A stretch of 64,000 nucleotides of DNA from an uncultured delta proteobacterium (GTDB lineage Bacteria > Desulfobacterota > Binatia > Binatales > Binataceae): contig CAWKKB010000005.1 of the NCBI GenBank assembly GCA_963850125.1, positions 35,807 through 99,806 of the forward strand, written 5' to 3'. The first letter of the stretch is position 1, and the number at the start of each line of letters is the position of its first letter. Below the pieces are notes generated by a model. That model made no database searches, was not told where the DNA came from, and worked only from the letters and a program-made list of their open reading frames with translations. Positions 49,844-55,119 of this stretch are shown piece by piece. The position numbers and the translations under genes were made by a program.

Positions 49844-50221
49844 TCATCTGACACGCGCGTAGTTGATCAGATCGCTGCCGTTGCCGGCGAGGGCCAGCTT
49901 CCCATTGGTGGCCGCGCATTGGACGGCACTCGCCGACGATGCGTCGGTGCATAGCACGACGTTGGTGTCGCCGGTGAAGCACGCATCGTTGACGGTCGCG
50001 TTGCCTTGAGCGAGCTGCACGCGTCCCGCACAGACGTTGACCGTCTCTCTCACATCGACCGAGCCGAAGACGCTGTTGGCGAAGACGTCGCGCGATTCCT
50101 TCGCCCCTGATCCAGGCTCGCCGGCCCGCCCCGGCGGCTCTGGATGGGACCCACGACCGCATCCAGAGCCAATCATCGCGAATAGGGAGAGTGCCGCAAG
50201 AATTGTCGTTCCTGTTTTCAT
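49844..50221 (-). CDS. Cys-containing lipoprotein
   Basis: Lipobox IGSGC; four further Cys in the C-terminal domain; last gene of the psp-like operon. Confidence 0.7.
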   Translation of the reverse strand: MKTGTTILAALSLFAMIGSGCGRGSHPEPPGRAGEPGSGAKESRDVFANSVFGSVDVRETVNVCAGRVQLAQGNATVNDACFTGDTNVVLCTDASSASAVQCAATNGKLALAGNGSDLINYARVR

Positions 50222-50243
50222 GTTCCCCAATCTTGGTGATTGA

Positions 50244-50624
50244 TCAGGCAAATTCAGCACTCGCCCGCTGTACGCTGACGCCTCCGAACAGCGAGTACGC
50301 AAGAATGTCCAGTGGTAGAGGAGCATCCTCGTCGTCATCTATCGTGGCGCTCGAGTCCGAACTGTTCGCGGCTGTTTGCCGGCTGCGCAGATCGATCTTG
50401 CGCCCTCCGAACACGCTAAAGCCGTCGCACACCACTTTTTCGTCGGGGCGCACTCTCACTCTGGCACCGCCGAATATCGCGACGACGGTAACGGCAAGCT
50501 CGGGCGGCGCAGAGGTGAGGTCCAAGTCAAGTCCTCCGAAAAGAGCAAGGCCAAAAAACGATTCTCCACGATGGAGCATGCTCCCGTCGATCTTGTTTCC
50601 GGAAAAAATGGCTAGGCTCACCAT
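50244..50624 (-). CDS. LiaF C-terminal-like (DUF2154-type) beta-repeat protein
   Basis: Repeated xFGG units: AIFSG, ALFGG.DLDL, AIFGG, SVFGG, SLFGG. Confidence 0.75.
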   Translation of the reverse strand: MVSLAIFSGNKIDGSMLHRGESFFGLALFGGLDLDLTSAPPELAVTVVAIFGGARVRVRPDEKVVCDGFSVFGGRKIDLRSRQTAANSSDSSATIDDDEDAPLPLDILAYSLFGGVSVQRASAEFA

Positions 50625-50631
50625 GATCGCA

Positions 50632-51372
50632 TCAATTCGCGTGCTTGATGTCGCCGTTGGCGGCGGCGTTGGCCGCTGCTGTGAAAATATCCATCGGCGC
50701 CAGCGGTGGACGACGCTTGCGCTTCAAGTCCGCGAGCTCGGCCTGGGCCTTGGCTTCGGCATTGCGCATCCGAATTGCTTCGAGCTTGTCGCCCAGCTCG
50801 GAGCCCGCGATTTCGTGATTTACGCCCGCCTGCGCAAGCATCCGCTGGATCGACTCGCGCACTTCTTCGAGCGCGCGCACGTCGTCGTCGGACGAAATCT
50901 CTTCGAGCGCTCGCTGGATTCGGACGCGAGCCTGCGCGTTCCTCATCCTTGCGATCATCCGAACCTTTTCGACCTTGAGCTTTTCAATCTCGCCCTTGAA
51001 CGAGATCAAATTCTTCTTCGCGTCCTCCGCTTCCGAAGTCAGCTCGCCGAGCTCTTCGCGGAGCCGCGTGCAATCGCCGTCGAGGATATGTTTCCGCTGA
51101 ATCAGGATCAGCGCGCATTGATCCTCGTTCATGTCGGCGGCCTGCCCTGCTTCTTCGTCGACTTCCTTCATCTCGGCGAGTTTTTCGCGCAGCTCGCGCT
51201 CGAGCTTGTTGCGCATGTAGATGACGCCGGCCGCCGCGGTCTTGAGCTGATGGTATCGGTGCACGCGATCCGAGATCGCGGACTCGTACACCGCCTCGGG
51301 GTCGCGCGCCTCGCGCGCCTTAATCCAGCGGCTTAACTTGCCTCCGAGCAATTTGAAAAATCTTGATAACAC
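50632..51372 (-). CDS. pspA: PspA/IM30 family protein
   Basis: Amphipathic N-terminus + DPE, long coiled coils, AQAELA.LK; GTG start with AAGGAG RBS. Confidence 0.88.
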   Translation of the reverse strand: MLSRFFKLLGGKLSRWIKAREARDPEAVYESAISDRVHRYHQLKTAAAGVIYMRNKLERELREKLAEMKEVDEEAGQAADMNEDQCALILIQRKHILDGDCTRLREELGELTSEAEDAKKNLISFKGEIEKLKVEKVRMIARMRNAQARVRIQRALEEISSDDDVRALEEVRESIQRMLAQAGVNHEIAGSELGDKLEAIRMRNAEAKAQAELADLKRKRRPPLAPMDIFTAAANAAANGDIKHAN

Positions 51373-51433
51373 CTTCGTTCTCCTTTGCGGCCGCGAGCGC
51401 GATCCGCTTGCGCAGCCGGCTGTTGCTGAATTT

Positions 51434-51935: not shown

Positions 51936-53384
51936 TCAATTTGGGTCGCTCTTGGGCGCGAGCCCGATATCCGCGAGCGTGATCCCCAGTTCGCGCATCT
52001 TTTGTTGAAAGCTCTGCCGGTACATTCCAGTGCGTTCCGCGGCGCGCGAAATATTTCCCCCGGTCGCTCGCAGAGCGCGAACAAAAAAATCCCGCTCCCA
52101 ATCGCCGACGAATTTTTCTTTCGCCTCGCGAAACGTCATCGCCGATTCGCCGTTGTCGCTGGAGACCGCCGCATGATTCGACGCGTTCGCGGCCGGCGAG
52201 TGATCGCCCTCCGGCTCCGATCCGGCGAAAAGATCTTCGGGGGTAATATCCGCCCCGGACGACAGGATCACCGCCTGCTCGATCGCCGCTTTGAGCGAAC
52301 GCGCGTTGCCCTTCCACGGAGCCTCGACGCACGCGCGCATCGCTTCGGGCGTCAGCTGCTTCTCGGGGGCGGAGAAACGCTGGCGTGCCTCCGCGATAAA
52401 GTGCTGAACCATCAGCGGAACGTCTTCGCGCCGCTCGCGCACAGGAGGCACGCGAATCTCGACGACCTTCAGGCGGTAGTAGAGATCCTCGCGAAACTTT
52501 CCCTGCTCGATCATCGCTTCGAGGTCCTGGTTGGTCGCCGCGATTATCCGCACGTCCACGCTCAGCGGTTGATTGCCGCCGATACGCTCGAACACCTGCT
52601 CCTGCAGCACGCGCAGCAATTTGGCCTGCGTCTCGAGCGCCATGTCTCCGATTTCGTCCAGGAACAAGGTTCCGCCGTTGGCGGCTTCGAATTTTCCTTC
52701 GCGACGCGCGACGGCGCCGGTGAACGCGCCCTTCTCGTGGCCGAACAGCTCGCTCTCGACCAGCTCGCGCGAGAACGCCGCGCAATTTACTGCGATGAAC
52801 GGCTTGCGCGCGCGCGGACTTCGAAAATGTATCGCGCGTGCGACCAGCTCCTTGCCGGTGCCCGATTCGCCGCGAATCAAGACCGTGACGTCGGTCGGCG
52901 CGACCTTGTCGATGGTCTCGAACACGCGCATCATCGTGCGCGATCGCCCGACCATATTTTCGAAAACTCCGGTCTCGAGCCGCACCTGCTCGAGCAGCTG
53001 GTTGTGCTCGCGCTTGAGCAGTTGCGTCTCCATCACCTTGCGCACTTTCATGCGCAACTCGTCGTTGTCGAACGGCTTGGGCAGGTAGTCTTCGGCGCCG
53101 GCCTTCATCGCTTCAACCGCGATTCGCTGCGTGCCGAACGCGGTGATCATAAGCACGGCGCATGTGGGATCGAGCTCGCGGACGTGCTTGAGCAACTCGA
53201 GCCCGCTCATTCCCTTCATGCTGAGGTCGGTGATGATCACGTGGAACAGCCCGGCCTTGACCTTCTCGAGCGCTTCCTCGCCCGACTCTGCGGTCTCGAC
53301 TTCGTAGCCCTCCTTGGTGAAGAGCCCCTTGAGCGCGATTACGATTCCGCGCTCGTCGTCAACTATCAGCAATCGGCCTTTCAA
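51936..53384 (-). CDS. Sigma54-dependent response regulator (NtrC family)
   Basis: Receiver [41 protein letters not shown]-terminal HTH; TTGA overlap with the kinase. Confidence 0.96.
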
Positions 53385-54898
53385 TTTCGTAGCCTCGAGG
53401 TCTGAGCGGATGGCGCCCCCGCCGCGAGCGGAACTATTGGCGTGGTAACCGCACCGCTATTATTGTTTCCCGCGTTGTTCTGCGGCGCCGGTTCGGCGGC
53501 CGCTTCACCCACGATGTCCGGCGATTCGGCCGACGACTGGACTACGTCGTCGTTGTCGCGAACCGAGTCGCTGAGCGGAATCGCGAGCACAAACTCGGTG
53601 CCCTGCCCCACTTTGCTGTGCACCTCGATCGTTCCGCGATGCGAGTCGATCACTTTTTTCGCGACGCCCAGGCCAAGCCCGGTGCCGTTGGTCTTCGAGG
53701 TGTAGAAGGGATTGAAAATTTTCGCGATCTTGTCGTCGGCAATCCCGCAGCCGTTGTCGCGAATCCGGACCGCCGCCATGCCGGCGCCGTTATTCTGGAT
53801 CGCGAACTCGAGCCGGCGCTCGCCGGTTGTCGACTCCATCGCGTCGATCGCATTGTCGATGATGTTCGAGAAAACCTGCCGCAGCTTGTCAGCGTCGGCG
53901 CGCACGGTCGGACCGCTCAGGTATGCGCGCGAAACGGCCACCGAGTTCGCCTCGAGCTTGCTGCGCATCTGCGTCAGCGCGCCGTCGAGCACCCACGCGA
54001 GGTTCACGTTCTCGAACTTGTAGTCCTCTTCCTTCGCGTATTTCAGCAGATGCGACACGCTGCGCTCGACGCGTGCGAGCTCATCGAGCGCGACCTTCGC
54101 GTACTCGACATTCTCGTGCGAGGTGGGATCCTCGCCCATCTGCTGCACCAAGCTTTTCGCGGCCGCGATCGGATTTCGGATTTCGTGGGCGAAGGTTGCG
54201 GTCAACTCATCGAGCGACGCCTGCTTTTCGGTCCGGAGCTGCTCCTTTTCCTGCAGAACTTCGCGCTGAACTTCGCGTGCGACCGCGGGCTGGAACACGC
54301 GATCATGGACCCATCGCCAGCCGTACACTGCCGAAAAGTGGCTCGCGATTCCAAATCCCCAGCCGAGCGCCGGCCAGATGAACCACGGATATCCGCCGAA
54401 CCCGGTCGTCATAAGATTGATGATGAACAGGAAGCCGATGATGATGCCGTACCACATCAGATGCACGAAGAAGCCGGCCTCGGCCTGTGCTCGTTTGCGG
54501 GCGCGCTCGTAGGTCTGTCGCTCGGCGTCGTTCTTGAATTGCGGTGGCGGCGGCATATCCTGCGCAGGGTCCGCGCTGACGCCGCTGTATTTGTTTGTCT
54601 GACGGTCGAATCGCGAGCGCATCTTGCGCTCGAATTTCTCGGCCTTGGCCTCGAACTTGCGCGCCATCTTGGAGTCGAAATCGCGCTTTATCTTGGCGTG
54701 AAGATCACTGGCGAAGCGCTCCGCGGACGCCGCTGTGGAAGCTTTCGCGTCCTCCGTCCACTTCGACCAGTCGCGCGACCATCGCGAGCCGCGCCCGTAC
54801 TGCGACCAATCGGCGTACTTCATCCAGCGCATTCTGTTTCGTTTTCGATGTTGCACGACCGCGTAAATGATTAGTGCTATTATAAAGATGCCGAACAT
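53381..54898 (-). CDS. Sensor histidine kinase with 2TM domain
   Basis: AHEIRNP, N-box NAIDA, DNGCGI, F.PFYTSK..GTGLGL; 2TM-like [23 protein letters not shown]...H. Confidence 0.93.
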
Positions 54899-54999
54899 CC
54901 TGCCTCACCTGCGGCCGGAAATGCCGGTCCGTGTAATTGACCTATCGAGTCGCCAGAACTAAAACAATCGCCCTTCATCTGCTGGTCCTGACCTCTAAG

Positions 55000-55016
55000 T
55001 GCAAAGCGGATGCCGA
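55000..55016 (-). promoter_or_regulatory. Sigma54 -24/-12 promoter
   Basis: Minus strand TCGGCATCCGCTTTGCA: GG-N10-GC, close to TGGCAC-N5-TTGCA; about 100 bp upstream of the kinase ATG. Confidence 0.75.
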
Positions 55017-55087
55017 CGCACGATCGCTTGAAAAACCCAGCATTTGCGCCGATTCCAGGGATCATACACGCAAAGATGGCGTCCAGG

Positions 55088-55119
55088 TGCAGTCGCGCCA
55101 TTGCAGTCCTCGCACTGCA
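55088..55119. promoter_or_regulatory. Candidate upstream activator sequence
   Basis: TGCA-N10-TGCA-N10-TGCA including the palindrome TGCAGT-N6-ACTGCA, about 75-105 bp upstream of the -24 box. Confidence 0.5.

Follow-up and report, generated by a model that had tools for sequence, protein, structure and literature searches.

We analysed a window of 64,000 nucleotides (positions 35807-99806 of contig C5) from a 5.46-Mb metagenome-assembled genome, 86.7% complete, of an uncultured soil bacterium, Candidatus Binatus (Binataceae, phylum Binatota). The window carries what is probably a positively autoregulated, sigma-54-dependent two-component operon for envelope stress with PspA as its conserved output. 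Six closely spaced open reading frames (ORFs) on the minus strand, between 49844 and 54898, code in this order for a histidine kinase (HK), an NtrC-type response regulator (RR), a small methyltransferase (MT), PspA, a protein with FGG repeats and a putative lipoprotein. An initial annotation of the same DNA had reported six co-oriented genes here, and each of them was found at its claimed position and strand, so that the six-gene observation is confirmed. The intergenic gaps are short (19 nt between RR and MT, 61 between MT and pspA, 7 between pspA and the FGG gene and 22 between this and the lipoprotein gene) and the HK stop codon overlaps the TTG start codon of RR as TTGA, an overlap that had also been described. 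The central proposal of that annotation, pspA wired to a phosphorylation-type sigma-54 activator with its own kinase under one shared sigma-54 promoter, was borne out. Positive autoregulation remains the probable mode of control because the predicted sigma-54 promoter would also drive the regulator genes that it precedes. Judging from the comparison with related genomes, in which the HK-RR-PspA order is kept far beyond the genus, the conserved core of the system is HK-RR-PspA, while MT, the FGG protein (a remote Toastrack relative) and the lipoprotein are accessories at the level of Binatus.

The kinase (53381-54898, minus strand) has the 2TM domain that had been assigned to it (PF13239, 64 bits, residues 131-205), together with HisKA (PF00512) and HATPase_c domains, and its H-box and ATP-binding boxes are intact. 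Hydropathy predicts three transmembrane (TM) helices, with an N-terminal anchor at residues 1-19 and a hydrophobic stretch at residues 139-170 inside the 2TM hairpin. The segment between anchor and hairpin (residues ~20-150) is predicted to be cytoplasmic; it is basic, with a net charge of +11, and contains 6 Trp residues. No periplasmic domain was detected by hydropathy and no HAMP domain in the Pfam scan. ZraS is among the best NCBIfam matches of the kinase core (159 bits vs an equivalog cut-off of 479). The regulator (51936-53384, minus strand) consists of a REC receiver (110 bits), a Sigma54_activat domain (257 bits) with an intact GAFTGA motif, AAA_lid_14 and a Fis-type helix-turn-helix (HTH_8). 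This is the architecture of the NtrC family, in agreement with the initial annotation. The acidic pocket of the receiver is complete (DD, D53, T and K). RR falls short of all the NCBIfam equivalog cut-offs (AtoC 455 vs 714, NtrC 451 vs 559 and ZraR 391 vs 760), and therefore it is none of these three regulators itself.

PspA/Vipp1/ESCRT-III proteins are universal membrane-repair machines, and PspA is an ESCRT-III-like membrane remodelling protein. The pspA gene of the operon (50632-51372, minus strand) starts with GTG, preceded by the strong and highly conserved ribosome-binding site AAAGGAGAAC. Its product had been labelled PspA/IM30, and PF04012 is indeed matched over the full length (residues 2-219, 70.4 bits against a cut-off of 33.9). 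Vipp1/PspA structures are matched along residues 20-227 (E 4e-11). The orthologs are 92-98% identical within Binatus and 39-47% identical in other Binatia. The lack of PspB and PspC was also upheld, as neither PF06667 nor PF04024 had a match at E <= 0.01 in the whole genome (86.7% complete), in a search with positive controls.

These features bear on the possibility that the operon follows the logic of PspF with a kinase added to it, i.e. that PspA inhibits the AAA+ domain of RR, membrane damage titrates PspA and phosphorylation is a second, permissive input. RR is 38% identical to Escherichia coli PspF over the AAA+ domain and the HTH, and PspA is encoded together with its activator as in enterobacteria. 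However, Ala is aligned to Trp56 of PspF, which we take to be a surface residue needed for PspA binding, and because of this replacement a PspF-type control by sequestration looks less likely than phosphorylation. Furthermore, RR departs from the definition of PspF, which has no receiver, by its REC domain; the complete receiver and the translationally coupled kinase are present in every version of the system; and this PspA has no similarity to E. coli PspA detectable by BLASTP. We regard such PspF-like control as quite improbable.

The predicted sigma-54 promoter is located at 55000-55015 (minus strand) and reads CGGCAT-N5-TTTGCA, with the GG at 55014-55013 and the GC at 55002-55001, agreeing with 9 of 11 consensus positions. 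Transcription would start near 54990. A candidate enhancer or upstream activating sequence was found at 55088-55119 (minus strand; TGCAGT-N8-CTGCAA-N9-CTGCAC), about -98 to -129 from this start, in which three TGCA boxes (55119-55116, 55105-55102 and 55091-55088) follow one another in 14-bp phase. When the intergenic region between the divergent pyrF-like gene and HK was aligned for 16 Binatus species, the GGCA and TTGC of the promoter and the three TGCA boxes were conserved while the DNA between them varied freely, a pattern that goes beyond chance. The single sigma-54 box described before ahead of the operon is this conserved -24/-12 element. One conserved intergenic block is explained by the sigma-70-type promoter of the pyrF-like gene (55143-55170, plus strand; TTGACT-16-TATTTT), which is itself conserved. 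The genome contains rpoN. Within the operon itself no further sigma-54 box reaches a score of 9 of 11, and a scan for sigma-70 promoters gave none there, its sole match being that of the divergent pyrF-like gene.

The predicted 5' leader (54899-54990, minus strand) ends with the Shine-Dalgarno sequence AGGTGAGG. Across the 16 Binatus species its last ~70 nt (54899-54965) hardly vary, less than the adjacent coding DNA, and a basal promoter or a site for protein binding might be located in this near-invariant stretch. Structured RNAs were also considered, both in the leader (folding z = -0.43) and in the gap between MT and pspA (z = -0.22), and were rejected in the two cases, with no covariation and no Rfam match.

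The conservation of the locus extends well outside this genome. All the Binatus genomes examined have HK-RR-MT-PspA between cinA and the pyrF-like gene, and the distal genes vary (the operons L095, L096 and L102 have neither the FGG nor the lipoprotein gene). In a sample of 201 Binatia genomes this clade of PspA was found in 62, representing 32 of 88 genera. RR lies directly upstream of pspA in 29 of the 30 best loci from other families of Binatia (at least six families), and the 30th ends at a contig edge; most of the RR-to-pspA gaps are of ~30 nt. Five loci from other Binatia families were read completely, and all of them had HK-RR-PspA, with a kinase of the same layout (anchor, basic Trp-rich segment and 2TM), a near-consensus sigma-54 box 33-77 nt before HK (e.g. 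TGGCACGAGCATTGCA) and TGCAG boxes 90-180 nt upstream, mostly with 14-nt spacing. Exact TGCA-N10-TGCA was present in 5/7 loci from outside the genus, where the chance per 140-nt stretch, estimated from base composition, is ~0.002.

Among the 120 matches listed by the two PspA homology searches there were only Binatia. The reach beyond the phylum comes from a genome search centred on a Myxococcales locus, by which the PspA clade was detected in 109 of 301 Myxococcota genomes. An adjacent RR was present in two of the 30 best Myxococcota loci, L145 and L146, both with the arrangement HK(2TM)-HK-RR-PspA, the sigma-54 boxes GGGCACGGCCCTTGCT and CGGCACGACCCTTGCT before the first kinase, and TGCAG-N9-TGCA upstream. 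This common enhancer motif argues that the systems of Binatia and Myxococcota are orthologous. The system is thus kept by roughly one third of the Binatia and is sporadic in Myxococcota. No sigma-54 box was found within 300 nt upstream of pspA in any of the 32 Myxococcota loci scanned for it (L113-L144), and the greedy ORF reading of these high-GC loci was too unreliable to name the neighbours. Some Myxococcota carry two tandem copies of the PspA clade, with no adjacent sigma-54 regulator or box (L115, 1504-3108, and L116, 1504-3119).

A different explanation would be that the main targets of the two-component system are elsewhere, and that pspA and the genes downstream of it are only neighbours, expressed from promoters of their own. 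The 61-nt gap ahead of pspA and the very strong ribosome-binding site in it speak for this. Against it, the gap has neither a sigma-54 nor a sigma-70 consensus, the short RR-to-pspA distance in most other loci does not suggest a separate control of pspA, and the adjacency of RR and PspA is maintained in the 29 of 30 Binatia loci and in the two from Myxococcota. Moreover, TGCA-N10-TGCA-N10-TGCA occurs at a single site in the 5.46-Mb genome (~0.26 expected), and thus no other target bears the enhancer signature; the lack of a second triple TGCA site in the genome means that further members of a regulon were not found either. We consider this explanation very unlikely.

The FGG protein (50244-50624, minus strand; 126 amino acids) takes its name from four (L/I/V)FGG repeats, and the label given to it before was LiaF-like. 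This label was sustained only as a remote relationship. No direct match was obtained in Pfam even at E = 10, including PF22570 and PF09922, or in NCBIfam at E = 1, and the search of PDB sequences with an FGG profile gave no match. The homologs are 126-aa "hypothetical proteins", nearly all from Binatia. However, the profile built from 30 homologs retrieved 1431 proteins among 1.84 billion representatives, and when 10 of the longer matches were scanned, 9 had PF09922 (LiaF-like_C) inside the stretch matched by the profile; one of these 9 also contained LiaF-TM, and several of the proteins a SHOCT-like DUF1707 domain. The AlphaFold2 (AF2) model is all-beta, with ten strands in pairs (pLDDT 75), and its best Foldseek match in the PDB, a weak one (E 0.16, TM-score 0.42), was 4QRK, which is cited as a Toastrack structure by Ravi et al. 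(PMC11237479). Hydropathy detected no hydrophobic or TM segment. Taken together, profile and model point to a remote, soluble and stand-alone relative of LiaF_C/Toastrack with a possible beta-solenoid fold, and since it has no membrane domain the protein is not a LiaF.

The initial annotation went further and saw in the locus a hybrid of the Psp and Lia designs. If this was a true hybrid, the FGG protein would be a dedicated inhibitor or switch of the kinase, like LiaF, and an integral part of signalling. Its remote kinship with LiaF_C would fit, and so would the 7-nt distance that keeps it translationally close to pspA. But no more than 8 of 25 Binatus genomes have the gene, FGG-positive operons are interspersed with FGG-negative ones on the RR tree, and the gene is missing from all the other Binatia and Myxococcota versions. 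It lies outside the conserved core, and its product has no TM domain while LiaF is anchored in the membrane. The hybrid design, and with it the FGG protein as a member of a conserved design, was not borne out in the form proposed; the label gives too much weight to the Lia-like component, which is an addition specific to one lineage, and we judge it unlikely that this protein is integral to signalling; the comparisons make it at most an optional modulator. The distribution suggests an old gene that has been lost repeatedly, with transfer as the alternative.

The same genome also encodes another PspA, of a more canonical type, within an operon XRE-NfeD-flotillin(band 7)-PspA (G000:C3:199300-202700; locus L109, 4317-7689), a context that has already been described (PMC11237479, PMC9239133). 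In another Binatus genome (G345, locus L029) an FGG paralog of 72% identity is found divergently oriented and adjoining the XRE-NfeD-flotillin-PspA2 operon, and the sigma-54 operon of that genome has no FGG gene. This neighbourhood, next to a second and unrelated PspA operon, makes a link to the biology of PspA likely and is the other point that can be made for the hybrid. Two different PspA genes thus have a Toastrack protein as a neighbour, which speaks for a functional connection with PspA but not for a core role in the two-component signalling. FGG paralogs are also found solitary in mobile-looking regions, another argument against a role integral to this signalling pathway, and the location suggests that the small FGG gene is mobile. 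Two such paralogs, of ~50% identity, stand alone near XRE-type regulators and transposase- or phage-like ORFs (L014, 6454-6921, and L030, 8001-8348).

The third gene of the operon, MT (51434-51916, minus strand), codes for a protein of 160 amino acids with at least 3-4 TM helices. It had been assigned to the ICMT family, an assignment that is sound at the level of the superfamily (PEMT, PF04191, 43.2 bits against a cut-off of 25), the ICMT profile itself being weak. The NCBIfam matches to isoprenylcysteine methyltransferase and to LmtA, the lipid A methyltransferase of Leptospira, are weak too. MT also matches the ICMT structures 4A2N and 5V7P and AtTam46, with its C-terminal RNPMY...EE...FG..Y..Y motif aligned. 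By domain and motif it is an integral-membrane SAM-methyltransferase of the PEMT/ICMT superfamily, which probably modifies a lipid or other hydrophobic membrane substrate. The gene is present in nearly all the Binatus operons seen and absent from the other families of Binatia, and in one Binataceae genome RR-PspA occurs with no methyltransferase gene.

The last gene (49844-50221, minus strand) codes for 125 amino acids with a signal peptide, a conserved GSGC and four further invariant Cys residues, and its product is predicted to be a lipoprotein or secreted. A start at 50338 was rejected, as the longer ORF would run into the FGG gene and lacks conservation; the true start is at 50221. No family match was found in Pfam (E = 10) or NCBIfam (E = 1), and the AF2 model (pLDDT 45) was unusable for a fold comparison. 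This gene is present in most of the Binatus operons, more than the FGG gene. In genome G345 it is duplicated in tandem downstream of pspA (L150, 2349-3058).

Putting the pieces together, the kinase may respond to a disturbance inside the cytoplasmic membrane or on its inner surface by means of its 2TM hairpin and its basic Trp-rich segment, and could thus be an intramembrane-sensing kinase in the manner of LiaS. It would phosphorylate RR, which would then oligomerise on the TGCA boxes and open the sigma-54 promoter. The levels of HK, RR and PspA would climb jointly, with the strong and conserved ribosome-binding site favouring PspA as the main output, and PspA would coat and repair the damaged membrane. 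In Binatus the response would be complemented by MT, acting probably by methylation on its lipid or other hydrophobic membrane substrate, and by the presumably periplasmic four-Cys lipoprotein. Some Binatus species would add the cytoplasmic Toastrack protein, probably as a modulator that binds to PspA or to the kinase.

Several observations weigh against this interpretation or parts of it. The -24 element begins with C instead of T in Binatus, and nine sigma-54 boxes of equal score occur in the window by chance. Because equal-scoring boxes arise in this way, it is conservation and position that carry the promoter call. An autoregulated circuit requires a basal promoter for HK and RR, and none was identified. 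In Myxococcota, 28 of the 30 loci of the PspA clade have no adjacent regulator or sigma-54 box, and since most of the members in this phylum lack both, the PspA clade itself is not tied to the sigma-54 wiring. As for the accessories, the weak similarity to LmtA and ICMT does not identify the substrate of MT, and the Toastrack assignment is remote, with no direct Pfam match and a Foldseek E of 0.16. What is said on the stimulus and on any negative feedback is purely conjectural.

A more specific version of the kinase-driven circuit can also be formulated, although we hold it with little confidence. According to it, the kinase would be a sensor of effector occupancy at the inner leaflet, its basic Trp-rich segment and hairpin competing or cooperating with PspA and, in the species that have it, the Toastrack protein, so that the feedback of PspA would act on the kinase at the membrane and not on the AAA+ activator as in E. 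coli. In Binatus a membrane lipid would be methylated as part of the repair by the ICMT/PEMT enzyme induced at the same time. If it was true, lipid methylation would represent a chemical arm of the Psp response not described so far.

Compared with known systems, the Binatus operon shares with the enterobacterial Psp system the PspA effector, a sigma-54 promoter (predicted in Binatus) and a dedicated AAA+ activator with a Fis-type HTH. It differs in that the activator has a receiver and a cognate kinase, RR is co-directional with pspA (pspF is divergent from pspABCDE), there is no PspB/PspC and the Trp56 of PspF is Ala. Control in Binatus would probably be exerted by phosphorylation and not by PspA sequestration as in enterobacteria. 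With LiaIH-LiaGFSR of Bacillus it has in common a PspA homolog under a two-component system and an autoregulated circuit (both predicted in Binatus), a kinase without extracytoplasmic sensor and, through the remote relationship of the FGG protein, a LiaF_C/Toastrack-type protein encoded in the locus. However, LiaR is a NarL-type activator of sigma-A transcription and LiaS has HAMP and HisKA_3 domains, whereas Binatus has an NtrC-type RR and a HisKA kinase with 2TM. In addition, the Toastrack protein of Binatus is soluble, optional and only remotely similar, unlike LiaF with its N-terminal LiaF-TM membrane domain, and no LiaI or LiaG was found in the Binatus system.

ZraPSR of E. coli and Salmonella is also a sigma-54-dependent pair of HK and NtrC-type RR with an envelope-protective effector, and ZraR is among the best NCBIfam matches of RR. 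But ZraS has a periplasmic sensor domain and ZraP is a periplasmic chaperone, whereas the Binatus kinase has no periplasmic domain and the effector is the cytoplasmic PspA. Close to the Binatus operon, too, are the loci L145 and L146 of uncultured Myxococcota, which share the core wiring, the type of sigma-54 box and the TGCAG-N9-TGCA enhancer, with 51-52% identity in RR and 39-40% in PspA. They differ by having two kinases, the first of which appears to be devoid of the N-terminal TM anchor, and no MT, Toastrack or four-Cys lipoprotein.

Two large surveys of Psp systems cover PspF-type activators, including variants with ACT or PAS domains, as well as LiaFSR-type and actinobacterial two-component contexts with winged-helix regulators, and they report that some Alphaproteobacteria and spirochaetes combine Toastrack proteins with PspF. 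In the paper on the sigma-54 regulome of D. vulgaris the Psp response is under a single-component, REC-less activator. A REC-containing sigma-54 activator with a kinase beside pspA, or an ICMT/PEMT partner, is not described in the two surveys, and the distinct regulatory design proposed by the initial annotation is not described there or in the regulome paper. Further full-text literature searches, with subscription journals outside their scope, gave nothing closer.

To our knowledge, the regulation of PspA is understood in three model systems only: PspF-PspABC, LiaFSR and the mycobacterial ClgR. The locus described here would be a fourth, conserved circuit, with a single promoter from which a kinase that senses within the membrane and a phosphorylated sigma-54 activator would control their own expression and that of PspA. 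Its enhancer motif is recognisable and common to two phyla. The set of promoter, kinase, regulator and effector is compact and could be rebuilt in a laboratory host, where it could show which physical signal of the membrane is read by a PspA circuit without PspB/PspC. The locus also links an ICMT/PEMT methyltransferase with PspA, and it connects two different PspA operons to a Toastrack protein that stands alone.

With regard to the surroundings of the operon, its last gene and a convergent cinA-like gene end 4 nt apart (49839-49844 of the window), and no intrinsic terminator was predicted between them. On the other side, the divergent pyrF-like gene (55214-56023, plus strand) starts at the ATG at 55214 and not at the TTG at 55202. 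Elsewhere in the genome, a single TGCA-N10-TGCA was seen upstream of a few sigma-54 boxes, such as one before a P450 gene; these are probably targets of other activators. At G000:C2:550293 (plus strand) the near-consensus sigma-54 box TGGCATTGCGATTGCT, with one TGCAG-N9-TGCA upstream, precedes a cytochrome-P450-like gene.

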